The notes beneath the pieces are model-generated. The model was not told the DNA's origin. It did not search any database and was given only the letters and a program-made list of their open reading frames with translations. Made by a program: the position numbers and the translations under genes. A stretch of 64,000 nucleotides of DNA from Verrucomicrobiaceae bacterium (GTDB lineage: Bacteria; Verrucomicrobiota; Verrucomicrobiia; Verrucomicrobiales; Verrucomicrobiaceae), in assembly GCA_019694165.1 (NCBI GenBank), contig JAIBCL010000031.1, positions 7,708 to 71,707 on the forward strand. Reading direction: 5' to 3'. Of this stretch, positions 29,915 through 62,838 are shown piece after piece; position 1 is the first letter of the stretch; each line of letters starts with the position of its first letter.

Positions 29915-30096
29915 CTCAGAACGGGACAGGCAGGCTGCGGAGCGGACGGGAGCTGCGGACGGCGGTCCGTTTGACGGACTCGCTGAAAAGCAGAAGTCGC
30001 AATTGAGTGGCCGGCCCGATACTTCCATGTATCCGGTGTCGTTCGTGGTTCCTCATGCCTGGATTTGGGCTGAGTTCGGCCGCCGCCCCTCGTCCT

Positions 30097-38449: not shown

Positions 38450-38498
38450 CAGCTGGGACAGAAAGTGATTGGACTGGTTTGCTCAGATGATGGGAAGA

Positions 38499-41225
<2,727 letters not shown>

Positions 41226-46711: not shown

Positions 46712-47167
46712 GTGGCCGCCGCCTTTCTCATGAGCACCGCCGAAACCATCACCGTTTTGCAGCCAAAGACGAACAGCCCGCCTCGAGTCAGGCGCTCGCA
46801 CAGCTTTCACCGCCCGTGGCATCTGTGGTGCGTGTGCATGCTGCTGGCGCTGTCGTTCATCGCGTTTTGTGCCTTCGTCGCCCTCGCCGTCGCCTTGCCG
46901 CTCACGGGCAGCCGGACAGTCGGCATTGCCAGCCTAGCCAGCCTCGCGCTTTTTGTCGGGATGCGCCTTGGCGCCTTCGTGCTCGCCGGCCGCCTTCATT
47001 GCGGCCTGTGCCACGGCACCATCATGTCCGAGAAAGCATGCCGGAAGCACGTTGAAGCCGTGCGCATCAAGCCCCTCTCCTACCTCGCCACCACCGTCCT
47101 GAGCGTGCTCTTCACATTCTCCTTCCGCTGCATGTACTGCGGCACGCGGTTCCGCTTGTGGAAATAG
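46712..47167 (+). CDS. Small 3-4-TM membrane protein with two Cys pairs (HCGLCH ... CMYCGT); hypothetical
   Basis: Starts 7 nt after the msrA stop. Hydrophobic segments LWCVCMLLALSFIAFCAFVALAVALPL and IASLASLALFVGMRLGAFVLA, then CxxC ... CxxC at the C-terminus. Confidence 0.45.
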   Translation: MAAAFLMSTAETITVLQPKTNSPPRVRRSHSFHRPWHLWCVCMLLALSFIAFCAFVALAVALPLTGSRTVGIASLASLALFVGMRLGAFVLAGRLHCGLCHGTIMSEKACRKHVEAVRIKPLSYLATTVLSVLFTFSFRCMYCGTRFRLWK

Positions 47168-47448
47168 GCAAATCCGCTGGGACGAACTGACCCGGAATCC
47201 GTGAAGCAGGTGCCACGCTCGCGGCCGGGACCGGCCAAGGGGTAAGGGGTTGCCGTCCGGGTGATGTCTTCGATGGCATGTGTGCGGCCGAGCAACGATG
47301 TGGCCACTTCGTTGCGCCAGCCCTGGCTCATCAATCCCGCGTGCGATCTCCATGGAGCATGACGATTGCCCTGTGGCGGGTTTTCTGATAGGCTCGGCAG
47401 AAATTCTTGCCGAAAAAGACAGGGCCAACTCCTCCGCCAGCACTCGTG

Positions 47449-50400
47449 ATGAAAACCCGTCCGTCTCCCTGCTTTTCCGTCTGGATGCCGTTGATGATGG
47501 CCCTGGCGGTGTTGCTTCTGGTCATTTGGTCCATGCGGCCATCGGACGAAACCAGACCGACGGCAGCGGAAACCGGTGCCCCGCCGGTGGCTCAAGCTGG
47601 CACCGGCGGAGGCAGGACGATCATCCAGCGCGCCAGAAAACGCATGGCTGCCGTGGATCTCCGTGAAGCTGGTGATGGAGGACAGTCGGGCGCGAGGCGC
47701 GAGCAGGCATTGGAGGCGTTGCGACGTGAGATTCCTGGCGTGCAGGTGGAGTTTGACGCGATCACCGGCGCGCCAAAGCACATCATGGCGGCGGGCAGAT
47801 TTCTCGCGGCAGCGGGGACGGGGGCCGCTGATCCGCACGCGCCGGTGCGCGCGTTCGTGGAGCGGCACGCGGCGCTCTTCGGCCACGACGCGGCGGAGCT
47901 GGCGCGGGGCCGCGCGCGGGTGACGCGCGAGGATGTGGCGGCGCACAACGGGATGCGCACGGTGGTGTGGCAGCAGGAGGTGGCGGGGCTGCCGGTGTTT
48001 GAGACGATCTTGAAGGCGAACGTGACGAAGGACGGTGATCTCATCACGCTCGGCAGCCACTTCATGGCGGATGCGCCGAAGGCTGCTGAAAAACAGGCAC
48101 GGCTCGTGTCGAGTCCGCCGCTGAATGCACCACACGCGCTGGCGGCTGCGGCGGCGAGCCTCGGAGGTGCGCTCGACTTGGCGCAGGTGACCTCACGGTC
48201 CGCGCAGCAGGGCGCGGAGCAGGCGCAGAAGCTGGAAGCACCCGGATTCACCGACACGACCGCGCACCTCGCCTGGGTGCCGATGGATGAGAGCACGCTG
48301 AGGCTGGCCTGGCAGATCGAGACATTCAGCCTCCAGCAGAATGAGATGTTTCGCCTGCTGGTGGACGCGGAGGACGGGAGGATTCTCGTGCGCCAGAGCC
48401 TCACCACGGACATCAGCAACGCGACGTACCGCGTGTATGCGAAGCCCGCCTTCCAGCCGTATGACAGCCCCACGCCCTTTTCTCCAGGCCATCTCACGCC
48501 ATCAAGCGCACAGCCCGCAGAGGTGAGCCGCAATGCGGTCACGCTCGATGCGGTGAATACGACCGCGTCTCCGAACGGCTGGATCGACGATGGCGGCACG
48601 CAGACGCTGGGCAACAACGTCGATGCGCACACGGACACAAACGCGGACAATGTCGCCGACCTGCCACGCCCGACCTCGGCCACGCGGAACTTTGACTTCG
48701 CTCTGGATCTCACGCAGGCGCCCTCGACCTACCGGGACGCGGCGGTGACGAACCTCTTCTACCTCTGCAATTTCATCCACGACCAGTACTACTCGCTCGG
48801 CTTCACTGAGAGCGCGGGCAATTTCCAGACGAACAACTTCGGCCGCGGCGGCAACGGCAACGATGCGGTGCAGGCAGATGCGCAGGACGGCAGCGGCACG
48901 AACAACGCCAATTTCTCCACGCCGTCTGATGGCTCGCCCGGACGCATGCAGATGTACGTGTTCACCGGCCCGACGCCGGACCGCGATGGCGACCTCGATC
49001 ACGAGATCGTGATCCACGAGTACACGCACGGCCTGAGCAACCGCCTTGTCGGCGGCGGCGTGGGCATGAGCCAGAATCAATCACAGGGCATGGGCGAGGG
49101 CTGGTCGGATTTCTACGGGCTGTGCCTGTTGAGCGAGGCTGGCGACGATCCGAACGGCAACTATGCGGCGGGCGGCTACGCGACGAAGGACTTCTCCGGC
49201 CTGACGCAGAACTATTATTTCGGCATCCGGCGCTATCCGTATTCGACGGACCTGCTGAAAAATCCGCTGACCTTCAAGGACATCGATCCGGCGCAGGCCA
49301 GCACTCACGCAGGCATCGCGCGCAGCACGATCATCGGCAGCACGGCCAACGAAGTCCACAACGAAGGCGAGGTGTGGTGCGTGACGCTGTGGGACATGCG
49401 CGCGAACTTGGTCGCGAAGCACGGCTGGGCCGCAGGGAACCAGCTCGCGCTCCAGATCACGACTGACGCGATGAAGCTCTGCCCGGCGAATCCGAACATG
49501 CTGCAATCCCGCGATGCCATCGTGCAGGCCGATCTTGTGAGCAACGCGGGTGCGAACCGCAATGAAATCTGGGCCGCCTTTGCCAAGCGCGGCATGGGCG
49601 CGAGCGCCACCTCACCCGCAAGCAGCACGACCTCGGGGCTGGTGGAGGCGTTCGATGTTCCGGACAATCTCGGCGTGTCGCCGGCCGGCGCACTCGCGGC
49701 CACGGGTCTGATCGGCGGCCCGTTCACGCCCGCGAGCCGGGTCTTCACGCTGCAAAACTCGGGCGCGGCCTCGGTGAACTGGACGGCCTCGGTGAATCAG
49801 CCGTGGCTCTCGCTCACGGGCGCGGCGGGCGCGCTGGCGGCGGGCGCGAGCACGACCGTGACGGCCTCCTTCAACGCGGCGGCCAACGCCCTGGTGGCCG
49901 GCTCCTACGCCGCCACGGTCACCTTCACAAACACGACGAGCGGCGCGGTGATCACGCGCGGCGTGTCGCTGACGGTCGAGCCGCAGCGCATCACGATTTT
50001 CTCGGAGCCGTTCGACGCGGCCACGCTCGGCGCGGCGTGGACGGTGACGGGCACCAGCACCTACCGCACGCAGGTGACGGCGCTCAACGGACCGCGCGCG
50101 TCGAATCACCTGACGATGGACTCGTCGGTGGACGCCAGCTACGCGCGCAACGAGGCCACGCTCACCGTGAACCTGGCGGGCCGGAGCGATGTGGTGCTGA
50201 GCTTCTGGGCCAAGAGCTTCAATGACGAGGCGAACGGGCCGCCCTCCAGCCCGTTCACCAACGGCGCCGACTTCGACGGCGTGGCGGTGAGCGCGGACGG
50301 CGGCACGACATGGTGGGAGGTGCAGCCGCTGCGCAGCCTCACCTCGACGTGGACGAAGTACACCGTCGATCTCGACGCGGCCATCGCGGCGCGCGGCCTC

Positions 50401-53400
50401 AGCTACGGCGCGAATTTCAAGATCCGCTTCAATCAGTACGACAATTACACCATCTCCACCGACGGCATCGCCATCGACGACATCCTGGTGGCGCAGACGC
50501 TGAACAACAACCTGGCGCTGGCATTGCCCGCAAGCGTGGTGACGGAGGGCGCGTCCGACATGACCGCCACGCTCACCGTTTCTCCAGCGCAGGCCGCCGC
50601 GCTCACGGTGAATCTGGCGGCGAGCCGCGCGGACGTGATGGTGCCGGCCTCGGTGGTGGTCCCCGCGGGCGCGACGCAGGCGACCTTTCCCGTGACCATC
50701 GTGGATGATGCGCTGCTGGACGGCTCGCAGGCGGTGACGATCACGGCGACGGCGCCGACCTTCAGCAATGGCAGCGCGACGTTGACGGTGGACGACAATG
50801 AGACGGCCGTGCTGGCGCTCGATGCGCCTCTCAATGGCAACGAGGGCAGCTCTCCCATCGCCGCCACCGTGAGCGTCGGCGCGGCGGTGGATGTGGACGT
50901 GGTGGTGCGGCTGGACACTTCCAATCCGCAGGCCAGCATCCCGCCGTCCGTGACGATTCCCGCCGGACAAAGCAGCGCGGAGTTTTACATCACGCTGGTG
51001 AATGACGGCCTCATCAATGGCACGCGCTCCGCCACCATCACTGCCAGCGTGACAGGCTGGACGGCGGGCACGGACACCATCAGCATCCTCGATGACGAGA
51101 CGGCCACCGTCGCGCTCGTGCTCAATGACACGACCAGTGAAGGATTGACCGGCACGCCGCAGATCGGCACGCTCACGCTCGGCGGCACGGCCGTCACGCC
51201 GGTGGAGGTGACGCTAATCTCCAGCGACACCAGCGAGCTGACCGTGCCCGCGACGATCACCATCGCCGCCGGGCAGAGCAGCGCCGCGCTGCTCGCGACG
51301 GTGATAGACGACGCGGACCTCGACGGCTCGCAGACGGTGACGGTGAGCGCGGCAGCCTTTGGCAATGCGGCGGTGACGGACACCATCGACGTGCGTGACA
51401 ACGACGCGGCCAGCTTTGTCATCGGCGCGGTGGCCAGCCCGCAGCGCGAGATGCAGGCATTCCCGCTCACGATCACCGCGCGCGATGTGAACGGCGCGCT
51501 GGTGCCGTCGGTGGCAGGGCCGTGGACTCTCAGCGCGGCGGGCGATGGCGGCGCGGCGGTGCTCAACGCGCCGACGGCCGCCTTCGTGAACGGCGTATGG
51601 CAGCAGAACGTGAGCATCGCCGCGCCGGATACGAACGTGCGCATCACCGTCACCGGCCCGAACGCGACGGCGCAGAGCAACGCCTTCGACGTGACCATCG
51701 GCCCGCGCATCGGAGTGGCACCGGCTGCCTTCACGCTGGACATTCCGCGTCAATCCAGCAAAACGCGCGCGCTGACGATCACCAACAACGGCCTGGGCGC
51801 GATGATCTGGAGCGCGGCGGGATCGCAGAGCTGGCTGACCTGCACGCCTGCATCCGGCAGCGTGGCGCAGGGCCAGTCCGCCACGGTGACGGTGAGCTTC
51901 AATGCCGCGACACTCGCGGAAGGCACCGCGGCGGCGCAACTCAACGTGACCTCAAACGACCCGATCACGCCCGCCGTGGCCGTGCCCGTGACGCTGAACG
52001 TGACTGCGCCCGTAGCCAGCTTCGTGTGGGACACGGTGCCTTCGCCCCAGCGCGTGAACGCGCCCTTTCCTGTGACGGTGACGGCGAAGGACGCGAGCGG
52101 GGCGACGGTGACGAACTTCGAAGGAACGGCGTCGCTTTCTGTGCTGGACGTAAATGGAGGCACCGAGGTGGTCACCACCACGGGGACTGGGTCAAACCAA
52201 GGTGGTGGTCCCGTGACAGCAGGCTTCAATGTTCTGCGGCAGCAGTTCATCTTCACGCCAGCAGAAGCCGGGCCGGCTGGCTTGATTCAGAGAATCCGCT
52301 TTCATGTGTTAACTGCATTTTCGTCGGGGCTTGCCAACTACACCATCCGCCTCAAGCACACCAATTTGACCACCAACTCGACGTGGCAGCCGTCCGGCTG
52401 GACCGTCTGCTACGCCCAATCCACCGGCCCGGTTTCCTCGCCCTGGCATGAGTTTGTCCTCACAACACCCTTCGCATATGATGGTACGAGCAATCTGATG
52501 GTGGATGTCAGCTATGCGACTGCGATAATGCCCGTCACAGGTTCCTATAGCAATGGGACCTATGCGAGCACCAATCGGGCTCTGTATTCAATGATCAATA
52601 TGCCTGGTTCTGACCCGCTCACTTGGAGTGGCACGGAGGGCAATGCCTCATCCCAGACCTGGCTGCCCAATTTTCAATTTGTCACCCTGGTGGGTGGATC
52701 GAATGCAGCCGCTGTGCTGCCAACGCTGACAGGCGCGTTTAGCTTGGGAGTGTGGAGCGGCCAAGTGCGACTCGATCGCGCCACGCCTGACGTGAAGCTC
52801 ATCGCCTTGATGTCGGCGCCATCGACGGGGTCGGGACTGACGAATTCCTTCGCGGTGACCGCCGACGGCACGCTCGGCATCACGCTTGCCTCCCAAGTGA
52901 GCGAGGGAGCGGGAACGCTCGGCGGCACGGTGACGATCACACCCGCGCCGTCGGCGGACGTGGAGGTGACACTCAGCTCCAGCGTCGCGAGTGCGGCGGT
53001 TCCGGCGGCGACGACGGTGACGGTGCCTGCCGGCAGCACCAGCGCGCCTTTTACTCTCAACATCATCGACGACACCGCGCTCGACGGCCCGCAGACGACG
53101 CAGATCGGCGCGGTGGGCGCCGGCTATGTGGCGGTGAGCACGCCGCTCGTGGTGGCGGATGACGAGGGCGCGGTGCTCGCGATCAACCTCGCGCAAAGCA
53201 GCTACGCCGAGGGCGCGGGCGTGATCTCCGGCACCATCACCAGCGACACCGCGCCGACAGTGCCCGTGACCATCGCGCTGACTTCCAGCGACACGACGGA
53301 GGCCACGGTGCCCGTATCCGTGACCCTGGCGGCGGGCGCCACCAGCGCGGCGTTCAGCGTGACCATCGTCGATGACACGCTGGTGGACGGTGATCAAAAC

Positions 53401-56400
53401 CTCGTGCTCACCGCCGCCGTCGCCGGCTGGGCCAGCGGCACGAAAAACCTCACTGTCACCGACAACGAGGCGCGCACGCTCACCTTCACCGGCGTGCCCG
53501 CGAGCATCAGCGAGGGCGCGGCCACGCTGGCCACACCAGCCGTCGCGCTTACGGGCCAGGCGGTGGCGCCGGTCGTCGTCACGCTCACTTCCAGCGATGT
53601 GACCGCGCTGCCGAGCATCAGCGTCACCATTCCCGCCGGCGCATCGTCCGCCGTGTTTGATCTCGATCCGGTGGATGACACGCTCTTCGACGGCACGCAA
53701 AACGTCACGCTCACCGCCTCCGCCGCAACGTTCAGTGACGCGACGGCAAACGTGGCCGTGCTCGATGATGACGTGCATCACTTCGCGCTCTCCGCCGTGC
53801 CCAGCCCGCAGAAAGAAGGCGCGGGCTTTGCATTCACCGCGACGGCGAAGGACATCAACGATGCGACGATCACCGCGCCCGTCGGCGGACCGGTGAACCT
53901 GAGCGCGGCGGGCGATGGCGGCGCAGCAAGCGTGCTGCCCGCGGTGCTCGCGCCGTTCACGGCCGGCGTGTGGACGGGCCAGGTGCGCGTGATGGCGCCG
54001 GACACGAACGTGCGACTCACCGTGACCTCGCCGACGGCCTCCAATCAATCCAACGCCTTCGATGTCGGCATCGGGCCGCGGCTTGGCGTGAATCCCACGA
54101 GCTACGCCGTGAGCGTGGCGCAAAACACCACAAAGACGCGTTCGCTGACGCTGAACAACACGGGTGCCGAGCCGCTGAACTGGAGCGCCACCACCACGGG
54201 CGACATCGACCCCCCGCTGGCGACGGCGCTGGCCGGGTTGAACGCGCGCCACGCTGAGATCACCGCGCTGATTCCGAACCGCTTTGATTTCACCGAAGGC
54301 GTGACCGGCACCTACATCAGCAGCGGCGGCGGCACGCACATGTATCACAGCGGGAACTACCTCAGCACCTCCCTCGCGCCATCGACGTTCATCAATTACA
54401 GCGACAACACGATCGCGGCGGCGGCGGCCACGTTCGGAGCAGGCGGGCAGTACTTCACGCGCAAGGTGCCGGGCCTTTTTGTGCTCGCGGCGGACATGAG
54501 CGGCGTGAGCAGCTTCACCATCAGCGGCAACACGGGGAACCACACCGGCCTCGTCGAAGGCTCCGTGCTGACGGCGACGCGCGGCGCGAAGACTTACAAG
54601 GGCTTCGTCAAACGCGCGCGCGGCGACGTCTCCTATGGCGCGGAGTCCATAAATCATCTCATCATCATCGAGAGCGACGCGGCGGCCTCGCACTCGTGGT
54701 CCGCTACGGTAGATTCAGACAACCATGTGCTCACGGGCATCGGCGCGCGCACGCGGCTCTATTACCTGCTGTATTCATCGGTGAGCGGCGGCAACATCAA
54801 TGACACGATCACGCAGACGATCTTCGACAAGTTCCTTGATGTAATCGGCGCCGGGAGCTGGATGACGGTCACACCCTCGTCCGGCACGGTGGCGGCGGGT
54901 GGCAGCCAGAATGTGAGCGTGGCTTTCAACGCCGGCAGTTTGAACACAGGCGTGTACAACGGCGGCATCTCGATCACCAGCAATGACGCTCTCACCTCGC
55001 CGCTGACGATCCCCGCCACGATGACGGTGACGCCCGGCATCCATCATTTTGAATGGGACACGATTCCTTCGCCGCAGGTGGTGAACGCTCCGGTCGCCGC
55101 AACGGTCCGAGCCCGGGATGCGGTGAACGCGCTGGTGACCGACTTCGATGGCATGGCAGCGCTCACGGCACTGAACACAGGTGCGGCGGGAGAGGCTACG
55201 ACGGGAGCGGGCACGTCCTCCACTTATCTGATACATGACACGAGCTACCAGGTGCATCGCACTCAGTGCATCTACACTCCGGCGGAGGCCGGTCCGGCGG
55301 CGCGGCTCAGCGGCCTGGCCTTTGACGTGGCCACTCTCGGCTCGCCGGCCGCCAGCAATTTCACCATACGCCTCAAGCATACGGTGCGCGCCAACTACAG
55401 CACGGACGCCTCATGGGAGGCTTCCGGGTGGACGACGGTCTTCACCGGCAGCAAGACGCTGGCCGCCGGCCTGAACTATTTCACCTTCTCCACTCCGTTC
55501 GATTACAACGGCACGAGCAATTTGATGGTGGACATCAGCTTTGTGAACACCACCTACAGCGGCTCTTCCTACGTCCGTTACACCACGGCAACATCCTCGC
55601 GCACGATTTACGGTGGAGCCTATTCGGGTGATCCACTCGCCTGGAGCGGCGCTGGTTCCTCCAGCACCGCGCTGCCGAACCTGCGGCTGGTGCGCTCAGG
55701 CGTTCCAGCCTCAGTTTCGCCTGTCGCCACCGGCGCGTTTGTAAATGGTGCGTGGACGGGCGACATCCGCCTTGGCACTGCCGGCGCTGTCGTCGTGACG
55801 GCCAGCGCGGGCGCCGCCACGGGTGCGAGCAATGTCCTGACCACCACCTCGTCCAGCACGCTGTCGCTTTCGATTCCCGCGAACGTGACGGAGGGACAGG
55901 GCACGCTGCTCAATGCGGGCACGGTCACGGCGGCCAGCGCGCCCGCCTCGCCGCTGACCATTTCTTTGGAGAGCCTCGACACCTCGGAGATCACGCTGCC
56001 GGCCACCGTCACTCTGCCAGCCGGCCAGGCCAGCGTGGCGTTTGATGTCACCGTGGTGGACGACCCGCTGCTGGATGGCCCGATCACCGTGCAGATGCGC
56101 GCGTTGGCGGTCGGCTATCCGACCGTGACCGCTACGACCACTGTGGCCGACAATGACACCACGACGGTGACGCTGACGCTGCCCGCGAGCATGACCGAAG
56201 GCACGACCAGCACGGCGGGCCAGGCGAGCGTGCAACTCGGGGCCCCGGCGGCCGAACCCCTCACCGTGGCCTTGGCCTCCTCACTCACCAGCCGGCTGAC
56301 GGTCCCGGCGTCGGTGACGATTCCAGCCGGGCAAAGCTCCGCCGCCTTCACCCTCACCGCCCCGAACAACACCATCATCGACGGCACCCAGACCGCCACG

Positions 56401-59400
56401 ATCACCGCCACGCTGGCGGGATCGGTGCCTGGAACCGGAACCGTGCAGGTGATCGACAATGAGAACACGAACCTCACGTTTTCCTCCGGCTACAGCAGCG
56501 TGAGCGAGGGCGCCGCGCCGCTGACGAGCGGCGGCTATGTGTACCTTTCTGGCACCGTAACCAGCGCGCTGACCATCAGCCTGGCCTCCAGCGACACGAC
56601 GGAGCTGACCTTGCCCGCCACGATCACCATTCCCGCCGGCAGTTCGCAGAGCAGCTACTTCGCGTTTACGCCGGTCAATGACACGCTGCAGGACGGCTCG
56701 CAGACCGTCACGCTGACGGCGTCCGCGTCTGGATTCACCAGTTCGAGCAGAACGATCACGGTGCTCGATGATGACGTGCATCATTTCACCGTCTCCACGG
56801 TGGCCAGCCCGCAGGTGAAGAACGGGCCGTTCAACGTCACCTTCACGGCGAAGGACATCAACAATGTCACCATCTCCGCCTATGCCGGCACGCCGACGCT
56901 CACCGCCGCCGATGGCGTGACGCCGCTGACCGTCACGCCCGCGAGCCTCACGGGGTTCAGCAGCGGTGCAAAGACCCAGAGCGTCATGGTCGGCGCGTTC
57001 GCCACCAGCGCGGTCTTGACGCTGACCGATGCCGTCACCGGCGGCAGCGGCAGCAGTACTGCCTTCGCCGTCGGCGCGGGCAGCTTGCATCATTTCGCCT
57101 GGGACACGGTCGCGTCGCCGCAGATGCTGAACGCCGCCTTCGGAGCCACCCTGTTTGCCAGGGATGTTTATGAAAACACCATCTCGAATTTCAGCGGCAC
57201 CGCTGGCCTGAGTGCTGCCAGCGCTTACTCCCTGACGACGGCGGGCACCGGCACCTTCACGGACTGGTATCCCTTTGGCGGTTACTACCCGCAAAACCGC
57301 TGCCAGATGATCTACACGCCTGCGGAAGTGGGCGGCACGGCGCGGAAACTGCAGGCGCTGGCCTTCGACATGACGACGCCAAACACCTCGTATCCCGCCG
57401 TGACGCTGTCCAACTTCACCATCCGCCTGAAGCACACCACCAAGACCGATTACAGCACCTCCGCCGTGTGGGAGACCGCCGACTGGACGACGGTGTATCA
57501 AGGCACGGTGAACATGAACCAGACCGGCTGGCGGCAGATCAATTTCACCACGCCCTTCGACTACAATGGCGCGGACCGCCTGATGGTGGACATCAGCAGC
57601 AGCAACTCGGGCTTCATGAACCGCATCGAAGCGCGGTCCGCCAATGTTTCTCCTTACCGGGTTCTTTACAGCTTCACCAGCAGCGCGACGCCGCCGACGC
57701 AGTGGACGGGAACCGCGAACGCTTATGCCTATCTGCCAAACCTTCGGCTCGTCTCGTTTCAAAACGTGCCGATGATTCCGGCGCAGGCCACGGTGTTTTC
57801 TGCGGGGGCTTGGAACGGGCAGGTCACGCTTCAGGCTGCGGCCAGCGGCGTGAGGCTGCTGGCTTCCAATGCGGCCAATGGTGTCGTGACCAATTCGAAT
57901 CCTTTTGATGTCAGCTACTTCGGCGACCTGAGCGTCACGCTGCCGGCCACGGTGGTGGAAACCGCAGGCAGCATCAGCGGCACGGTCAGCGTCTCCGTCG
58001 CTCCTTCGTCCGATCTGACCGTGAGCCTCGCGTCGAGCGATGCCACCGAACTGCTGCCCGCCGCGGCATCGGTCGTCATTCCGGCGGGCCAAACGTCGGC
58101 GCCCTTCACGGTCACGGTGCTCGATGATGCGGATCTTGATGGCGACCAGTCCGTGCAGATCACGGCGGCGGCGGCCGGTTATCAGACCGGATCGGCATCC
58201 GTCGCCGTCAAGGATGATGAAACCACGGTGATCACGCTCGCCGCGCCGGCAGCGATCAATGAAAACCAGGGCACGCTGGCAAACGCCGGGACCATCACGC
58301 TGGGCACCGTGGTCACTGCGCCGGTGACCGTCCTGCTTGCATCGTCGGACACAACGGAACTGACGGTGCCGGCCTCGGTGGTGATTCCGGCGGGAGCGTC
58401 GGCCGTCTCCTTCAGCATCACGGCCGTGAACGACACGATCATCGATCTCGACCAAGCCGTCACTCTGACCGCCAGCGTGGCCGGGTGGACGGCTGGCGCG
58501 GCCCTGGTCACAGTGACGGATGATGAACCGAGGAATTTGTCATTCGCCTTCACGCAGAGCGCCACCGAGGGCGATGCGGTGCTGGCCGCCACCGTCTCGG
58601 CTGGCAAGGTGATGGGCTATGATCTGACGGTGAGCCTTGCCTCCAGCAAGACTGGCGAGGCGACGGTGCCCGCCACCGTCGTCATCCCCGCCGGCCAGCA
58701 AACTGCTTCATTCTACATCGCGATCGTGGATGACGCGCTGGCTGACGGCGCGCAGACCACGTCGATCACAGCCACGGCACCGGCCTTCTCTGCCGGCTCC
58801 CGCAGTCTGACGGTGCGGGACAACGAGCCGCATCATCTGGACATCAGCGCCATTTCCGGCCCGCGGACGAGAAACGCGGCTATTCCGGTGACCATCAGCC
58901 TGATGACGATTGATGGCACACTCGTCGCGAACTTTGCCGGCACCGCCGCTCTCGTCATCAACAGCACCGGCGGCCCGCTGGGAATGTCGCCCGCCATCAC
59001 GGGCGCTTTCGTGGGAGGAGTGTGGTCGGGTGATGTCACCGCCACGGACGCGGGCACGGGCGCGGTGCTCACCGCCGCCATCGCGGGCGGCGTCGCCGGG
59101 AGCAGCAACAGCTTCGACGTTCTCGCCCACGGCGCGCTCGCCGGACTAGAGTGGTCGCCGATCTCGCCTACGCAATACCCGAACGTGCCGGTGCCCGTGA
59201 CGATCACCGCCAGGGATGCCGCGGGCAATGTCGTGACGGATTTCGACCAGACGGTGACTCTCACGGCGCCCCTCGGCGCTTCAGGCACTCGAAACGTCGG
59301 CTCGGGCACGACAACCGACGCAGCCCCCATCCACACAGGTTTCCATGATTGCCGCGCTCAGGAAATCTATCTGCCCGGCGAAGTCGGTGGCGCCGGGCGC

Positions 59401-62400
59401 TTCACGTCGCTGGCATTGAACATGACCACTGCCCCGCCGCCGGTGAACCTGACCAACTGGACCATCCGCATGAAGCACACGAGCCGCACGCAGTTCGGTC
59501 CGGCGGCGTCGGACTACATCTGGGAGACGGACGGCTGGACCACGGTCTATTCCAACAGCGTGGCGCTCAGCGGCTTCGCGGGCTGGATCAAGTTCGATTT
59601 CTCCACGCCGTTTGACTACAACGGCACTGACAACCTCCTGATCGATTTCAGTTTCGACAACTCGAGCAAATTCTCGCCCACGACATTCACCTACGTCGCC
59701 GCGACGACGAGAACCGCGGGCCGGCGGATCAGCTACTATTCCGACAGCGGTCACGGTGCGCCGCTCAGTTGGTCGGGTGCCAGTCCCGTCGCGTTCGCCG
59801 ACAGCCGCGTGGCCGATCTGCGGCTCGAGAGCAGCCTCGTGGTGTCCATGACGCCGGCCGTGTCGGGCCAGTTCGTGAACGGCGTCTGGAGTGGCTCACT
59901 CACATTTCCGAGCACGGCCGCCGCCGTGACAGTGATCGCCGCGCACCAGGCTTCGGGTCTGACCGGCGCGTCCAGCACGTTCGATGTCATCGCGCCTCCG
60001 CCCGCGCGGCTGGCCTTCACCGCGCTGCCCGCGCGCGCCGCGGCTGGCGAGCCTTTCGCCGTCACCATCACGGCGCTTGATGCGGCGGGAAATGTCACGC
60101 CCGGTCACACGGCCGCGGCCGCACTCAGCCTGGTGAATCCCGAGAACGTCACGACGACGATCGGCGCGGGACTCTATCCGGGAACCGTGCCGCTCTATGC
60201 GGCGCAGACGGACTGCCGGTCGCAGATCGTTTACAAGCAGCAGGAGCTCGGCGCGGCGCGCCGTCTCACGGGGCTGGCGCTGAACATCGCCACTACGTCC
60301 GCCTTTGTTTACAACAACTTCACTCTCCGGTTGAAGCACACCGGCCGCGCGCACTTCAACACCGCGCCGAGCTGGGAAGGCGCGGGCTGGACCGTCGTCT
60401 GGCAGGGCGCGAAGACCTTTGACACGGCGGGCTGGATCCCCTTCACCTTCTCCACGCCGTTCGATTACAACGGCACGGACAACCTGATGCTCGACGTGAG
60501 CTTCGACAACACGAGCAGCGGCACGAGCGCCTGGCTGCGCAAAGATCCCACCGGCTACGATGTCGGCATGATCTATTACTACTCGCCGTCCGCGGGCGAT
60601 CCGCTGTCGTGGAGCGGCAATTCGGTTTCCACCTTCGGCGCGGTCGAGCGGCCGCAGCTCCGCTTGTTCAGCGATCCGGGCATCACGGTCTCGCCGGCCT
60701 CGACGGGCGCTTTTGTGAATGGCGTGTGGTCGGGCAATCTCACGGTGGTCGGCATGCATCCGGCCGTGGTGCTCAAAGCCGTGGCCGCCGGAGTTTCCGG
60801 CTTGTCCGATCCCATCATGGTCGGATACCCGGCGCCGTCGATGCTGGCGGAGCCAGCCTTCACCGGCGGCGTGACCAATCAGCTCGCCTGGAACCTGCTG
60901 GCCGGTCCGGCGGCGTACACGCTCCAGCGCGACACGGTGCCGTCGTTCACCAATCCCGCGAGCATGACAGGAGTCACCATCGGGTCGGCCACCTTCAGCG
61001 CGTTGCAGGACACGGTGCGTTACTACTACCGCGTGTGTGGTGACTCCGCCTCGCCGCAGCCCGCCGGCTTGAACCAATGGAGCCAGACTTCTTATGCCGA
61101 TTTCGTCGCCTGCACGCACTCGGGCACTTCGGCGGCAGTCTCGCTGCACGACGTAGCCCTCGCCGCCGCATCAACCAGCACCGCCACCTCGACGGAGAAT
61201 TTCGACGGCGGCGGAACGGCCTGGGCCGGAACGATCTTCTCGCAGGCGGGCGGCACGGCGACGATGGATCTTCAGGACATGACCACCGGCCCCGCCGCGA
61301 CGCCGTCGCTGCCGGTGAATACCGGTGGCGACTTCGAAGGCAGGATCGGCAATGCATCGGGCTTCGGCTCCGGCTATGCCCTCCTGCCATCCAGCAACTT
61401 CGCCGACGGCTCCATCGAAGGCTATCTCGCGCCCGAAAACGCGGCTGCCGGGGCTGGCGGGATGGGAGCCTTCATGCTCAGGGCGAGTCCCTCCGCAACC
61501 GGCGGTCTGCAAGGCTACGCTGGCTACGCATCCTTTGGCACCTCGACGGCCTACTTTGGCATCTACGTCGTGGTCAATGGCACAACCAGCACCCTGGGCG
61601 CCGCCGGTTTCTCCACCGCGCTGACGACCGCCGACAATCTCAAGCTCCGCCTGTCTGCGCAAGGCAGCACGCTGACCCTCCAGGCATGGAAGGTGGCCGT
61701 ATCCGGCGGCGTGGTCACGGAAACGCCGCTCGTGCTCGAATCGGGTTCCACCTCGCTCGTGCGGACCGACACGACCTTCGCCTCCGGCAGCGCCGGCGTG
61801 TTCGCCAATGGCACGGCCGTCCGCTGCTATTTCGATGACATCACCGTCACGAGAAATGCGCCAGTGTTCGTGACGTCCGGCGCAGCGAACTCGCCGCTAA
61901 TTGCCCCGCCCTATTTCAAGACCTGGGGCGCCCTCAATTTCACCGGTGACACGAGCGGGTCGGGCACCACGCTCTCGATCGACGTGCTCAATGCGGCGGG
62001 CGGCCTGCTCGCCGCCAACGTCGCCACGGGCACGGATTTGAATGCGCTCCCCGCTGTGGCGCCGCAGCCGGCCATCAAGCTCCGGGCCAATCTGGCCACC
62101 TCCAACAGCGCGAACTCGCCCCGCCTCCGTGACTGGAGCGTGGGCTACGTTCTGAATCCGCCGGCCACGATCTCCAGCGTGTGGTCGAATGTCGTCTCAT
62201 CCACCCAGGACGCCACGCCGCCCGTCATCTCTGCTCCCGATTTGCACACCTCCGCGGGCACCGCCAGCCTCGGTGGCACCGCGCTCGATGCCGTGAGCGG
62301 CGTCGCCGGCGTCACCGTCGCGGGCAATGCTGCCGCCACATCCGACAGCTTCGCAAATTGGAACTCTCCCGTCACCGGCCTCGTCAATGGCGCAAACTCC

Positions 62401-62838
62401 ATCACCGTCACCGCCGCCGACAATGCCGTGCCGCCCAACACCGCCACCGTGACGGCGCTCGTCTTCCGCATCAGCGCGCCATCCGCCGACGCCGATGGCA
62501 ATGGCATCTCCGATCTGCTGCAGCACGCGCTGGCCATTCCGGCGGCCGACCCCGACCCGCTCTCCATGCTGCCGGCCGTCGGCGTGCAGACCGACGGCGG
62601 CACCGGCAAGAAATTCCTCACGCTCGACTATCGCCGTCGCATCCAGCGCGGCGGGCTGACCTACACCGTCGAAACGAGCGGCGATCTGAAGACCTGGACA
62701 GCCGCAGGCGGCGATGCCGTCGAGCAATCCGTCACGCCAGCCGGTGATGGCGTCACGGAAAACGTCCGCGTCCGCATCACGCCCGCGCTCGACCTCGCCA
62801 GTGCGAAGTTCGTTCGCCTCAGCGTGACGGTGCAGTGA
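47449..62838 (+). CDS. Giant (~5130 aa) secreted/surface protein. Signal peptide, FTP/PepSY-like propeptide, M36 fungalysin-type zinc metallopeptidase, then arrays of Calx-beta-like domains, Ig-like and ASH/choice-of-anchor-D-like domains, and five copies of an uncharacterised ~280-aa module.
   Basis: HEYTHG (HExxH, 49015-49029) followed by EGWSDFY (49096) and GEVWC, the diagnostic fungalysin M36 pattern. Calx-beta-like repeats such as LTVSPAQAAALTVNLAASRADVMVPASVVVPAGATQATFPVTIVDDALLDGSQAVTITA...TLTVDDNE. ASH-like domain LTITNNGLGAMIWSAAGSQSWLTCTPASGSVAQGQSATVTVSF. Start placed at MKTRPSPCFSVWMPLMMALAVLLLVIWS (ATG at 47449; the track ORF begins at 47407). Confidence 0.85.
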   Translation: MKTRPSPCFSVWMPLMMALAVLLLVIWSMRPSDETRPTAAETGAPPVAQAGTGGGRTIIQRARKRMAAVDLREAGDGGQSGARREQALEALRREIPGVQVEFDAITGAPKHIMAAGRFLAAAGTGAADPHAPVRAFVERHAALFGHDAAELARGRARVTREDVAAHNGMRTVVWQQEVAGLPVFETILKANVTKDGDLITLGSHFMADAPKAAEKQARLVSSPPLNAPHALAAAAASLGGALDLAQVTSRSAQQGAEQAQKLEAPGFTDTTAHLAWVPMDESTLRLAWQIETFSLQQNEMFRLLVDAEDGRILVRQSLTTDISNATYRVYAKPAFQPYDSPTPFSPGHLTPSSAQPAEVSRNAVTLDAVNTTASPNGWIDDGGTQTLGNNVDAHTDTNADNVADLPRPTSATRNFDFALDLTQAPSTYRDAAVTNLFYLCNFIHDQYYSLGFTESAGNFQTNNFGRGGNGNDAVQADAQDGSGTNNANFSTPSDGSPGRMQMYVFTGPTPDRDGDLDHEIVIHEYTHGLSNRLVGGGVGMSQNQSQGMGEGWSDFYGLCLLSEAGDDPNGNYAAGGYATKDFSGLTQNYYFGIRRYPYSTDLLKNPLTFKDIDPAQASTHAGIARSTIIGSTANEVHNEGEVWCVTLWDMRANLVAKHGWAAGNQLALQITTDAMKLCPANPNMLQSRDAIVQADLVSNAGANRNEIWAAFAKRGMGASATSPASSTTSGLVEAFDVPDNLGVSPAGALAATGLIGGPFTPASRVFTLQNSGAASVNWTASVNQPWLSLTGAAGALAAGASTTVTASFNAAANALVAGSYAATVTFTNTTSGAVITRGVSLTVEPQRITIFSEPFDAATLGAAWTVTGTSTYRTQVTALNGPRASNHLTMDSSVDASYARNEATLTVNLAGRSDVVLSFWAKSFNDEANGPPSSPFTNGADFDGVAVSADGGTTWWEVQPLRSLTSTWTKYTVDLDAAIAARGLSYGANFKIRFNQYDNYTISTDGIAIDDILVAQTLNNNLALALPASVVTEGASDMTATLTVSPAQAAALTVNLAASRADVMVPASVVVPAGATQATFPVTIVDDALLDGSQAVTITATAPTFSNGSATLTVDDNETAVLALDAPLNGNEGSSPIAATVSVGAAVDVDVVVRLDTSNPQASIPPSVTIPAGQSSAEFYITLVNDGLINGTRSATITASVTGWTAGTDTISILDDETATVALVLNDTTSEGLTGTPQIGTLTLGGTAVTPVEVTLISSDTSELTVPATITIAAGQSSAALLATVIDDADLDGSQTVTVSAAAFGNAAVTDTIDVRDNDAASFVIGAVASPQREMQAFPLTITARDVNGALVPSVAGPWTLSAAGDGGAAVLNAPTAAFVNGVWQQNVSIAAPDTNVRITVTGPNATAQSNAFDVTIGPRIGVAPAAFTLDIPRQSSKTRALTITNNGLGAMIWSAAGSQSWLTCTPASGSVAQGQSATVTVSFNAATLAEGTAAAQLNVTSNDPITPAVAVPVTLNVTAPVASFVWDTVPSPQRVNAPFPVTVTAKDASGATVTNFEGTASLSVLDVNGGTEVVTTTGTGSNQGGGPVTAGFNVLRQQFIFTPAEAGPAGLIQRIRFHVLTAFSSGLANYTIRLKHTNLTTNSTWQPSGWTVCYAQSTGPVSSPWHEFVLTTPFAYDGTSNLMVDVSYATAIMPVTGSYSNGTYASTNRALYSMINMPGSDPLTWSGTEGNASSQTWLPNFQFVTLVGGSNAAAVLPTLTGAFSLGVWSGQVRLDRATPDVKLIALMSAPSTGSGLTNSFAVTADGTLGITLASQVSEGAGTLGGTVTITPAPSADVEVTLSSSVASAAVPAATTVTVPAGSTSAPFTLNIIDDTALDGPQTTQIGAVGAGYVAVSTPLVVADDEGAVLAINLAQSSYAEGAGVISGTITSDTAPTVPVTIALTSSDTTEATVPVSVTLAAGATSAAFSVTIVDDTLVDGDQNLVLTAAVAGWASGTKNLTVTDNEARTLTFTGVPASISEGAATLATPAVALTGQAVAPVVVTLTSSDVTALPSISVTIPAGASSAVFDLDPVDDTLFDGTQNVTLTASAATFSDATANVAVLDDDVHHFALSAVPSPQKEGAGFAFTATAKDINDATITAPVGGPVNLSAAGDGGAASVLPAVLAPFTAGVWTGQVRVMAPDTNVRLTVTSPTASNQSNAFDVGIGPRLGVNPTSYAVSVAQNTTKTRSLTLNNTGAEPLNWSATTTGDIDPPLATALAGLNARHAEITALIPNRFDFTEGVTGTYISSGGGTHMYHSGNYLSTSLAPSTFINYSDNTIAAAAATFGAGGQYFTRKVPGLFVLAADMSGVSSFTISGNTGNHTGLVEGSVLTATRGAKTYKGFVKRARGDVSYGAESINHLIIIESDAAASHSWSATVDSDNHVLTGIGARTRLYYLLYSSVSGGNINDTITQTIFDKFLDVIGAGSWMTVTPSSGTVAAGGSQNVSVAFNAGSLNTGVYNGGISITSNDALTSPLTIPATMTVTPGIHHFEWDTIPSPQVVNAPVAATVRARDAVNALVTDFDGMAALTALNTGAAGEATTGAGTSSTYLIHDTSYQVHRTQCIYTPAEAGPAARLSGLAFDVATLGSPAASNFTIRLKHTVRANYSTDASWEASGWTTVFTGSKTLAAGLNYFTFSTPFDYNGTSNLMVDISFVNTTYSGSSYVRYTTATSSRTIYGGAYSGDPLAWSGAGSSSTALPNLRLVRSGVPASVSPVATGAFVNGAWTGDIRLGTAGAVVVTASAGAATGASNVLTTTSSSTLSLSIPANVTEGQGTLLNAGTVTAASAPASPLTISLESLDTSEITLPATVTLPAGQASVAFDVTVVDDPLLDGPITVQMRALAVGYPTVTATTTVADNDTTTVTLTLPASMTEGTTSTAGQASVQLGAPAAEPLTVALASSLTSRLTVPASVTIPAGQSSAAFTLTAPNNTIIDGTQTATITATLAGSVPGTGTVQVIDNENTNLTFSSGYSSVSEGAAPLTSGGYVYLSGTVTSALTISLASSDTTELTLPATITIPAGSSQSSYFAFTPVNDTLQDGSQTVTLTASASGFTSSSRTITVLDDDVHHFTVSTVASPQVKNGPFNVTFTAKDINNVTISAYAGTPTLTAADGVTPLTVTPASLTGFSSGAKTQSVMVGAFATSAVLTLTDAVTGGSGSSTAFAVGAGSLHHFAWDTVASPQMLNAAFGATLFARDVYENTISNFSGTAGLSAASAYSLTTAGTGTFTDWYPFGGYYPQNRCQMIYTPAEVGGTARKLQALAFDMTTPNTSYPAVTLSNFTIRLKHTTKTDYSTSAVWETADWTTVYQGTVNMNQTGWRQINFTTPFDYNGADRLMVDISSSNSGFMNRIEARSANVSPYRVLYSFTSSATPPTQWTGTANAYAYLPNLRLVSFQNVPMIPAQATVFSAGAWNGQVTLQAAASGVRLLASNAANGVVTNSNPFDVSYFGDLSVTLPATVVETAGSISGTVSVSVAPSSDLTVSLASSDATELLPAAASVVIPAGQTSAPFTVTVLDDADLDGDQSVQITAAAAGYQTGSASVAVKDDETTVITLAAPAAINENQGTLANAGTITLGTVVTAPVTVLLASSDTTELTVPASVVIPAGASAVSFSITAVNDTIIDLDQAVTLTASVAGWTAGAALVTVTDDEPRNLSFAFTQSATEGDAVLAATVSAGKVMGYDLTVSLASSKTGEATVPATVVIPAGQQTASFYIAIVDDALADGAQTTSITATAPAFSAGSRSLTVRDNEPHHLDISAISGPRTRNAAIPVTISLMTIDGTLVANFAGTAALVINSTGGPLGMSPAITGAFVGGVWSGDVTATDAGTGAVLTAAIAGGVAGSSNSFDVLAHGALAGLEWSPISPTQYPNVPVPVTITARDAAGNVVTDFDQTVTLTAPLGASGTRNVGSGTTTDAAPIHTGFHDCRAQEIYLPGEVGGAGRFTSLALNMTTAPPPVNLTNWTIRMKHTSRTQFGPAASDYIWETDGWTTVYSNSVALSGFAGWIKFDFSTPFDYNGTDNLLIDFSFDNSSKFSPTTFTYVAATTRTAGRRISYYSDSGHGAPLSWSGASPVAFADSRVADLRLESSLVVSMTPAVSGQFVNGVWSGSLTFPSTAAAVTVIAAHQASGLTGASSTFDVIAPPPARLAFTALPARAAAGEPFAVTITALDAAGNVTPGHTAAAALSLVNPENVTTTIGAGLYPGTVPLYAAQTDCRSQIVYKQQELGAARRLTGLALNIATTSAFVYNNFTLRLKHTGRAHFNTAPSWEGAGWTVVWQGAKTFDTAGWIPFTFSTPFDYNGTDNLMLDVSFDNTSSGTSAWLRKDPTGYDVGMIYYYSPSAGDPLSWSGNSVSTFGAVERPQLRLFSDPGITVSPASTGAFVNGVWSGNLTVVGMHPAVVLKAVAAGVSGLSDPIMVGYPAPSMLAEPAFTGGVTNQLAWNLLAGPAAYTLQRDTVPSFTNPASMTGVTIGSATFSALQDTVRYYYRVCGDSASPQPAGLNQWSQTSYADFVACTHSGTSAAVSLHDVALAAASTSTATSTENFDGGGTAWAGTIFSQAGGTATMDLQDMTTGPAATPSLPVNTGGDFEGRIGNASGFGSGYALLPSSNFADGSIEGYLAPENAAAGAGGMGAFMLRASPSATGGLQGYAGYASFGTSTAYFGIYVVVNGTTSTLGAAGFSTALTTADNLKLRLSAQGSTLTLQAWKVAVSGGVVTETPLVLESGSTSLVRTDTTFASGSAGVFANGTAVRCYFDDITVTRNAPVFVTSGAANSPLIAPPYFKTWGALNFTGDTSGSGTTLSIDVLNAAGGLLAANVATGTDLNALPAVAPQPAIKLRANLATSNSANSPRLRDWSVGYVLNPPATISSVWSNVVSSTQDATPPVISAPDLHTSAGTASLGGTALDAVSGVAGVTVAGNAAATSDSFANWNSPVTGLVNGANSITVTAADNAVPPNTATVTALVFRISAPSADADGNGISDLLQHALAIPAADPDPLSMLPAVGVQTDGGTGKKFLTLDYRRRIQRGGLTYTVETSGDLKTWTAAGGDAVEQSVTPAGDGVTENVRVRITPALDLASAKFVRLSVTVQ
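52015..52860 (+). repeat. Copy 1 of the uncharacterised ~280-aa module (WDT-x-x-SPQ ... C-x-x-I/F-x-TPAEAG ... IRLKHT ... GWT-x-x ... F-x-TPF-x-YDGTSNLMVDVS)
   Basis: FVWDTVPSPQRVNAPFPVTVTAKDASGATV ... QQFIFTPAEAGPAGLIQRIRFHVLTAFSSGLANYTIRLKHTNLTTNSTWQPSGWTVCYAQ ... FAYDGTSNLMVDVSYA. Confidence 0.6.
55040..55860 (+). repeat. Copy 2 of the ~280-aa module
   Basis: HHFEWDTIPSPQVVNAPVAATVRARDAVNALV ... TQCIYTPAEAGPAARLSGLAFDVATLGSPAASNFTIRLKHTVRANYSTDASWEASGWTTVFTG ... FDYNGTSNLMVDISFVN. Confidence 0.6.
57090..57900 (+). repeat. Copy 3 of the ~280-aa module
   Basis: HHFAWDTVASPQMLNAAFGATLFARDVYENTI ... NRCQMIYTPAEVGGTARKLQALAFDMTTPNTSYPAVTLSNFTIRLKHTTKTDYSTSAVWETADWTTVYQG ... FDYNGADRLMVDISSSN. 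Confidence 0.6.
59150..59990 (+). repeat. Copy 4 of the ~280-aa module
   Basis: LEWSPISPTQYPNVPVPVTITARDAAGNVV ... HDCRAQEIYLPGEVGGAGRFTSLALNMTTAPPPVNLTNWTIRMKHTSRTQFGPAASDYIWETDGWTTVYSN ... FDYNGTDNLLIDFSFDN. Confidence 0.6.
60010..60830 (+). repeat. Copy 5 of the ~280-aa module, directly abutting copy 4
   Basis: LAFTALPARAAAGEPFAVTITALDAAGNV ... TDCRSQIVYKQQELGAARRLTGLALNIATTSAFVYNNFTLRLKHTGRAHFNTAPSWEGAGWTVVWQG ... FDYNGTDNLMLDVSFDN. Confidence 0.6.

Follow-up and report, generated by a model that had tools for sequence, protein, structure and literature searches.

A giant M36 metallopeptidase with a modular stalk from a Verrucomicrobiaceae bacterium is one member of a widespread class of enzyme-headed proteins

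The DNA analyzed here (the window) is a stretch of 64,000 nucleotides (nt) from a Verrucomicrobiaceae bacterium (assembly GCA_019694165.1, contig JAIBCL010000031.1, positions 7,708 to 71,707 of the forward strand), and the gene under study, at positions 47449 to 62838 of the window, encodes a giant metallopeptidase of family M36. The open reading frame (ORF) at 47407..62838 on the plus strand runs without a stop codon over 15.4 kb and is the longest of the region. Starting from the ATG at 47449, it codes for 5,129 amino acids (aa) and ends with a stop codon at 62838 (+), giving 5,130 codons. A preliminary description of this DNA had placed the protease and a repeat array in one reading frame, and indeed neither a stop nor a frameshift separates them. 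Its size of 5130 aa was right as to the intact single ORF but counted the stop codon as a residue. An identical protein is deposited in GenBank (MBX7211457.1) with the label "M36 family metallopeptidase," and an identical protein has been called on a metagenome contig of the Joint Genome Institute (JGI). The base composition of the gene is that of the remaining window. DNA repeats within the gene are at most 91 nt long and only 60 to 87% identical, which indicates that its modules are old duplications and makes a collapse of repeats during assembly unlikely. The features of the gene are as follows, with the evidence for each in parentheses; HMM stands for hidden Markov model, Ig for immunoglobulin, and CBM for carbohydrate-binding module.

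47449..62838 (+), whole gene, pre-pro M36 metallopeptidase with a giant modular stalk (uninterrupted ORF; exact match to MBX7211457.1)
47464..47535 (+), N-terminal hydrophobic segment, aa 6-29, Sec signal peptide or signal anchor (hydropathy scan)
47758..48468 (+), propeptide with FTP motif, aa ~104-340 (Pfam FTP at aa 157-204; alignment to 4K90_B)
48514..49617 (+), M36 (fungalysin) catalytic domain, aa 356-723 (Pfam; 4K90_A; motifs)
49681..49983 (+), BACON/ASH-like Ig domain 1, aa 745-845 (Pfam BACON_2 at aa 763-837; internal HMM)
49996..50553 (+), lectin-like domain, aa 850-1035, beta-sandwich fold assumed (NCBIfam choice_anch_J)
50569..51465 (+), triplet 1 of ~100-aa Calx-beta-like repeats (internal HMM; alignment A4)
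51403..51720 (+), uninterrupted invasin-like Ig domain ('..F..xxVxSPQ'), copy 1 (alignment A1)
51706..52008 (+), BACON/ASH-like domain 2 (HYDIN_VesB_CFA65-like_Ig, E = 5e-13; BACON_2; internal HMM)
52009..52932 (+), Ig domain with predicted nested CBM-like jelly-roll, copy 1 (alignments A1 and A2)
52927..53832 (+), triplet 2 of Calx-beta-like repeats (internal HMM)
53770..54090 (+), uninterrupted Ig domain, copy 2 (alignment A1)
54079..55035 (+), BACON/ASH-like domain 3, split by a nested ~215-aa domain (split HMM matches)
54202-54846 (+), the nested ~215-aa domain, aa 2252-2466, within the third BACON-like domain (split HMM matches)
55036..55920 (+), Ig domain with predicted nested CBM-like jelly-roll, copy 2 (the modelled copy)
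55921..56835 (+), triplet 3 of Calx-beta-like repeats (internal HMM)
56773..57080 (+), uninterrupted Ig domain, copy 3 (alignment A1)
57082..57960 (+), Ig domain with predicted nested jelly-roll, copy 3 (alignment A1)
57982..58887 (+), triplet 4 of Calx-beta-like repeats (internal HMM)
58825..59130 (+), uninterrupted Ig domain, copy 4 (alignment A1)
59131..59985 (+), Ig domain with predicted nested jelly-roll, copy 4 (alignment A1)
59983..60825 (+), Ig domain with predicted nested jelly-roll, copy 5 (alignment A1)
60826..62478 (+), four further C-terminal modules: Fn3-like, aa 4460-4560; aa 4575-4805; aa 4805-4935; Ig-like, aa 4940-5010 (weak Pfam/NCBIfam matches)
62461..62835 (+), conserved terminal domain, aa 5005-5129, candidate sorting or anchoring element (alignment A5)

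The N-terminal part of the protein is a complete zinc-protease head, as had been proposed, with the FTP propeptide, the M36 domain, and the motifs HEYTH (aa 523-527; 49015-49029), GEGWSD (aa 549-554; 49093-49110), and GEVW (aa 640-643) all located. The Pfam profile Peptidase_M36 (PF02128) matches aa 356-720 with 397.7 bits (cut-off, 23.3; E = 7.1e-119) over profile positions 12 to 368 of 368, and FTP (PF07504) matches aa 157-204 with 25.2 bits (cut-off, 21), so that both profiles expected for such a head lie above their cut-offs. The pro-domain chain 4K90_B aligns to aa 156-310 (E = 2.6e-06), and the catalytic domain aligns to Mep from Aspergillus fumigatus (4K90_A; E = 8.9e-77), with HEYTHG and GEGWSDF conserved. 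The PF02128 match, HExxH together with E-G-W-S-D, and the FTP propeptide place the head in peptidase family M36 of clan MA. With all sequence hallmarks of a fungalysin present, the enzyme is very probably active. A hydropathy scan of the entire 5,129-aa protein found aa 6-29 as the sole hydrophobic segment. The preliminary description had named it a signal peptide, but because the segment is long and is followed by Trp and charged residues, a feature shared with many close relatives, it may be a signal anchor instead of a cleaved signal peptide.

The stalk that follows the head was mapped by fragment self-comparison, motif anchoring, alignments, and internal HMMs. Its ~4,400 aa contain three BACON/ASH-like domains, nine Ig-like units, and 12 repeats of ~100 aa in four triplets. 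Each triplet opens one of four super-repeats and is followed by Ig-like units. Downstream of these lie a fifth insert-bearing Ig unit and ~670 aa of further modules; in total, ~30 beta-sandwich modules stand in line and six more are nested laterally. BACON_2 scores 27.6 and 49.1 bits (cut-off, 25) and HYDIN_VesB_CFA65-like_Ig scores 49.5 bits (cut-off, 25.5); with the nine Ig-like units, these matches above the Pfam cut-offs agree with the adhesin-like scaffold of Ig-like and ASH-like domains described earlier. The stalk modules resemble domains of the adhesins invasin and intimin. The earlier label of Calx-beta-like is tentative. The 12 repeats, found by the internal HMM with independent E values of 1e-32 to 1e-39, are weakly similar to Calx-beta, but by sequence they stay below the threshold of PF03160 (16 to 18.5 bits versus a cut-off of 27; E = 0.002 to 0.011), and a profile of the 12 repeats matches the calcium-binding domain (CBD) of NCX1 weakly, at an E value of about 0.4. 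The lectin-like domain at aa 850-1035 matches choice_anch_J (choice-of-anchor-J) weakly (E = 0.012), over the full profile, and recurs up to three times in relatives. Each of the four modules at 60826..62478 likewise recurs in relatives, with weak Pfam and NCBIfam matches.

The recurring novel module noted in the preliminary description proved to be a nested domain. An Ig-like domain bearing the signature "..HHF.xxxV.SPQ ... F.NGVW.G.V" is present nine times (alignment A1); four of the nine are uninterrupted, and the other five carry an insertion of ~195 aa, always at the same loop, which identifies the insert as a domain nested within its Ig host. An AlphaFold2 model of one whole Ig-plus-insert unit (copy 2) is confident, with a mean predicted local distance difference test (pLDDT) score of 88.6. 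In this model the ~195-aa insert is predicted to be a jelly-roll, by fold most like carbohydrate-binding modules, set in an invasin-like Ig host. Searches of Pfam and NCBIfam gave no match to the jelly-roll even at an E value of ≤1, and a profile of the module gave none among the sequences of solved structures at the same limit. The insert was also found outside an Ig host in secreted proteins of short length, where it immediately follows a signal peptide or adjoins Peptidase_C10 or dockerin domains, and it is thus an autonomous extracellular domain. A derivation of the jelly-roll from the lectin-like domain at aa 850-1035 as a diverged copy was considered and rejected (hhalign probability, 1.9%). 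We regard the Ig unit with its nested jelly-roll as a candidate for a new curated domain family. The insert in the third BACON-like domain (aa 2252-2466), which has no Pfam or NCBIfam match at an E value of ≤1, was found as a single full-length copy in each of 21 other giants, M36- or S8-headed, and this recurrence rules out that it is unique to the protein studied here.

At its C terminus, the protein carries a terminal domain consisting of a helix region, 'D.D.DGI..LL.HALG', and a six-strand beta-sandwich that ends in '..FVRL.V'; the pattern for the class as a whole is 'D.D.DG...LLEYALG' followed by a sandwich ending '..F.RLRV'. We surveyed heads and endings in the 148 best module-bearing representatives obtained by the profile search described below. 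The terminal domain, ~120 aa long, is present in 45 of them, under M36, S8, and unassigned heads, and in 44 of these 45 it lies no more than 5 residues from the end of the protein. This placement at the extreme C terminus makes it a candidate sorting or anchoring element. Classified by ending, 44 of the 148 have the window-type domain, 29 end in another sandwich, marked by "..FYRxR..", and 1 ends in PEP-CTERM; the corresponding numbers among 35 M36 giants are 16 with the window-type domain, 10 with "..FYRxR..", and 9 with other or truncated ends. A third ending, '...GAVLQKQ..GAGAF...', was observed in the M36 giants P0177, P0185, and P0222, all of which lack the window-type domain. A search for T9SS-like (type IX secretion system) C-terminal domains (CTDs) gave only generic Ig/Fn3 matches, and this assignment was rejected. 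Motif and hydropathy scans of the M36 giant for PEP-CTERM, LPXTG, and a C-terminal hydrophobic segment found none of these. The earlier statement that the protein has no recognizable anchor is thus correct for the known signals, but it overlooked the conserved terminal domain as a candidate anchor.

The protein is far from alone. A word-index homology search returned at least 1,520 relatives of the M36 head at an E value of ≤1e-20. The best 120 of these are bacterial or metagenomic (those with names are mostly Verrucomicrobiota), are 489 to 1,330 aa long, share 46 to 63% identity with the query over its full length, and often include BACON or Ig domains; in addition, NCBIfam holds three multi-domain bacterial M36 families. 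These findings contradict the view, expressed in the preliminary description, that M36 is a predominantly fungal, stand-alone family. The word-index list, in which all proteins were ≤1,330 aa, suggested that giants are rare, and an exhaustive profile search overturned this. The word-index search had badly under-sampled, giving 18 short matches for the module and 12 fragments for the terminal domain. The exhaustive search with the nested-unit profile returned 13,225 representatives at an E value of ≤1e-3, a count that includes matches to the host Ig half alone, and 1,550 at ≤1e-30, each representative being a cluster at 50% identity. Its top matches are giants of up to 6,732 aa, and the window protein itself is in the list as P0140.

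Thirty-five other representatives, 2,615 to 6,732 aa long, have a full N-terminal M36 domain, and another three are truncated at the N terminus. All 35 of these giant relatives have kept HExxH and E-G-W-x-D intact. We define the group by an N-terminal pro-M36 head, the Ig unit with nested jelly-roll, and a length of >2,500 aa, and the window protein qualifies. By catalytic-domain identity its nearest relative is the giant P0233 (3,024 aa; 88%), followed by P0248, P0249, P0151, and P0208 (3,463 to 4,255 aa; 76 to 79%). Named examples are MBL9185109.1 (5,838 aa) from Verrucomicrobiaceae and MEA3208287.1 (4,320 aa) from Chthoniobacter, the latter labelled only "large repetitive protein." This is a recurrent giant family of Verrucomicrobiota, seen in Verrucomicrobiaceae and Chthoniobacter, and with 35 other M36-headed giants and a GenBank entry that already names the protein an M36 metallopeptidase, the implied uniqueness of the fusion does not hold. 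Literature searches for verrucomicrobial M36-headed giants, the nested module, and the terminal domain found none of them described, and, in line with the preliminary description, they found no characterized protein of this architecture. Compared with its closest relative, the head is 80 to 91% identical and the stalk is 38 to 50% identical and reordered, with the terminal domain kept at the end; the ends are thus conserved and the middle is shuffled. In P0001 (983 aa), the best full-length word-index match, the C-terminal ~60 residues look out of frame. Judging from short contigs and such out-of-frame-looking tails, some of the short matches are probably truncated at contig ends or frameshifted; some short verrucomicrobial M36 entries may thus be incomplete giants, which are probably underrepresented in public length distributions.

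M36 is also not the only enzyme found on this stalk. Heads identified among the 148 representatives are M36 (38), Peptidase_S8 (10), Peptidase_C25 (5), Peptidase_C1 (4), and GH141/beta-helix (1); the remaining 90 have no assigned head, and some of these appear N-terminally truncated. S8-headed giants have the same BACON-like and lectin-like domains immediately after the enzyme. P0148, P0238, P0214, and P0146 are giants of 2,500 to 5,800 aa in which the stalk toolkit accompanies Peptidase_S8, C25, C1, or GH141 heads. The shared stalk under these different heads makes M36 one cargo of a modular enzyme-on-stalk class. The window protein is a member of this widespread, uncharacterized class of enzyme-headed stalk proteins and a variant of the bacterial multi-domain M36 proteases.

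The surroundings of the gene are not conserved. No neighboring genes are common to the three loci examined, and the sole cross-matches between these loci are antisense shadows of the giants' own terminal domain. A gyrB-gyrA pair lies at 35855-41207 (-), with GyrA 86 to 88% identical to that of metagenome-assembled genomes (MAGs) of Verrucomicrobiota and Verrucomicrobiaceae, which establishes the host lineage. Synteny with the closest MAGs (83 to 88% identity) stops right past gyrB, leaving the giant beyond its reach, which indicates that its neighborhood is not conserved even among close relatives. Between a Band-7 gene and the M36 giant lie two ORFs, at 44337-46013 (+; 558 aa) and 46712-47167 (+; 151 aa), for which we found no Pfam match and no counterpart beside two other family members; the 151-aa product resembles a small membrane protein. 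Scans for promoters and terminators around the giant gene gave nothing informative. Elsewhere in the window, two tandem genes at 67-10785 (+) and 10892-29914 (+) encode giant PATR-repeat proteins of at least 3,572 aa (running off the window start) and 6,340 aa, respectively. Their C-terminal ~260 aa are very similar and have classic PEP-CTERM ends (VPEPGR...RRRR). The presence of PEP-CTERM in these giants and its absence from the M36 giant indicate that this genome uses exosortase sorting for some giants and not for the M36 one. Directly downstream, at 30007-31932 (+), is a fused ABC_membrane and ABC_tran exporter, which is possibly linked to the export of the PEP-CTERM giants.

What might such a protein do? 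The identity of the protein is secure, and we infer its topology and binding roles from the domain order. We consider it probable that it is an exported pre-pro M36 zinc endopeptidase permanently fused to a C-terminal stalk and acting as a surface-tethered, substrate-bound protease; the earlier picture of a protease displayed on a stalk is plausible in this respect. The N-terminal hydrophobic segment would direct Sec export. The propeptide would fold, inhibit the enzyme, and then be cleaved autocatalytically, as it is in fungalysin and thermolysin, and this removal would free the mature protein from the N-terminal segment, whether signal or membrane anchor. The strictly terminal C-terminal domain would mediate export across, or retention at, the outer membrane, with the protease at the far end of a stalk of roughly 100 nm, a length estimated from the ~30 in-line domains. 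Glycans or matrix polymers would be bound by the five CBM-like jelly-rolls nested in the Ig units, by the lectin-like domain, and by the Calx-like repeats, which would hold the protease on its substrate. Its likely role would be the degradation of extracellular proteins and glycoproteins for nutrition, possibly on the biofilm matrix or on other cells.

The main rival to this tethered protease is a freely released one, in which the array would serve as a multivalent substrate-binding device, like the CBM arrays of secreted glycoside hydrolases, and the terminal domain would be merely a secretion signal or one more binding module. Once the propeptide is gone, no anchor motif of the membrane, lipid, or cell-wall type is left at either end; the nested modules resemble CBMs, and they are also present in short secreted proteins, where they follow signal peptides or adjoin dockerin or Peptidase_C10 domains. 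However, a single domain kept strictly at the terminus under different heads is more in keeping with a sorting or retention element, and the repeats (twelve Calx-like and nine Ig-like) have the look of spacers more than of binding sites. We consider release possible but rather unlikely. It is also conceivable that the protein is primarily an adhesin and that the M36 head mainly processes the giant itself or neighboring surface proteins instead of external substrates. Such a role has been proposed for the N-terminal peptidase domains (S8 and C39) of Omnitrophota giants (10.1101/2023.11.21.568195), in which N-terminal S8 domains were noted, and it would fit the likeness of the stalk to invasin and intimin. 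This appears improbable, however, because conservation along the protein is highest in the head and because the class includes a GH141 glycosidase head, which is unable to process proteins; moreover, M36 proteins that are short and bear one to three accessory domains are frequent in this phylum. Finally, a sequence that is metagenome-derived and encodes a highly repetitive protein might be suspected of being a chimeric assembly, a frameshift-fused gene pair, or a decaying pseudogene. The stop-free 15.4 kb, the short and diverged DNA repeats, the intact catalytic motifs, the same product on the JGI contig and at NCBI, and the same head-to-tail organization in 35 independent relatives all speak against an artefact, which is effectively excluded.

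Verrucomicrobiota are abundant degraders in soil, water, and guts, and to our knowledge the ways in which they deploy extracellular enzymes are poorly understood. The gene described here is a clean, full-length example of a catalytic head, a fast-evolving spacer or binding chain, and a conserved terminal domain. Its class contains at least three sizeable domain families that lack a Pfam or NCBIfam model, with thousands of representatives for the Ig unit with nested jelly-roll, and its terminal domain is a candidate for a new type of C-terminal sorting element that is open to testing. This raises the rather speculative idea, which at present we would doubt more than believe, that the terminal domain tags an undescribed sorting, secretion, or retention pathway of Verrucomicrobiota for enzyme-headed giants (M36, S8, and others) and that the nested jelly-roll is a new CBM family. 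The claim of a unique fusion should be dropped; the value lies in what is seen at the level of the class, in the domain families for which no model exists, and in the terminal domain as a candidate sorting element, along with a correction of the view of M36 as an essentially fungal family.

Among known systems, fungalysin, represented by A. fumigatus Mep (MEROPS M36; 4K90), is homologous to the window protein in its propeptide and catalytic domain. In the fungal M36 enzymes the chain stops with the catalytic domain (389 aa in mature 4K90), whereas the window protein continues for ~4,400 aa more and comes from a diderm bacterium. Closer in organization are the multi-domain bacterial M36 proteins of NCBIfam, each with a C-terminal sorting element: NF038112 (myxosortase), NF038113 (T9SS), and NF038111 (rhombosortase). 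The window head matches these three profiles at E values of 1e-105 to 1e-124 but falls outside each family, with 416.3 bits versus 1500 for NF038112, 414 versus 885 for NF038113, and 352.8 versus 1700 for NF038111. Both MYXO-CTERM and GlyGly-CTERM need a C-terminal hydrophobic segment; the window protein has no such segment for the former, no C-terminal transmembrane segment for the latter, and no match to a T9SS CTD. It is also 3 to 6 times longer than the three profiles and ends in an unmodelled beta-sandwich. LapA and the ice-binding MpIBP are giant adhesins secreted by the type I secretion system (T1SS), in which Ig-like spacer repeats hold ligand-binding modules off the cell; they have C-terminal RTX/T1SS signals, an N-terminal retention module, and no enzyme head. 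The long chain of Ig-like spacers is alike in the window protein, in which no RTX repeats were detected and an enzyme head is present, and the Pfam LapA match is weak (E = 0.0022). Another bacterial M36 homologue, likened here by description, is MepA (MXAN_3564) of Myxococcus xanthus, for which genetic evidence supports an extracellular protease: its disruption lowers exoprotease activity. MepA was enriched in outer-membrane vesicle fractions, and that report describes no giant repeat stalk (PMC4158809). An M36 domain within a bacterial giant is itself already in print, contrary to what the preliminary description implied: a 36,805-aa protein of the Chlorochromatium aggregatum epibiont was reported to contain one (bioRxiv, 10.1101/2023.11.21.568195). 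That protein, likened to ours by description, also places M36 in a repetitive giant and is thought to mediate cell contact, but the two differ in phylum and in repeat content, and the epibiont protein is larger by a factor of seven.

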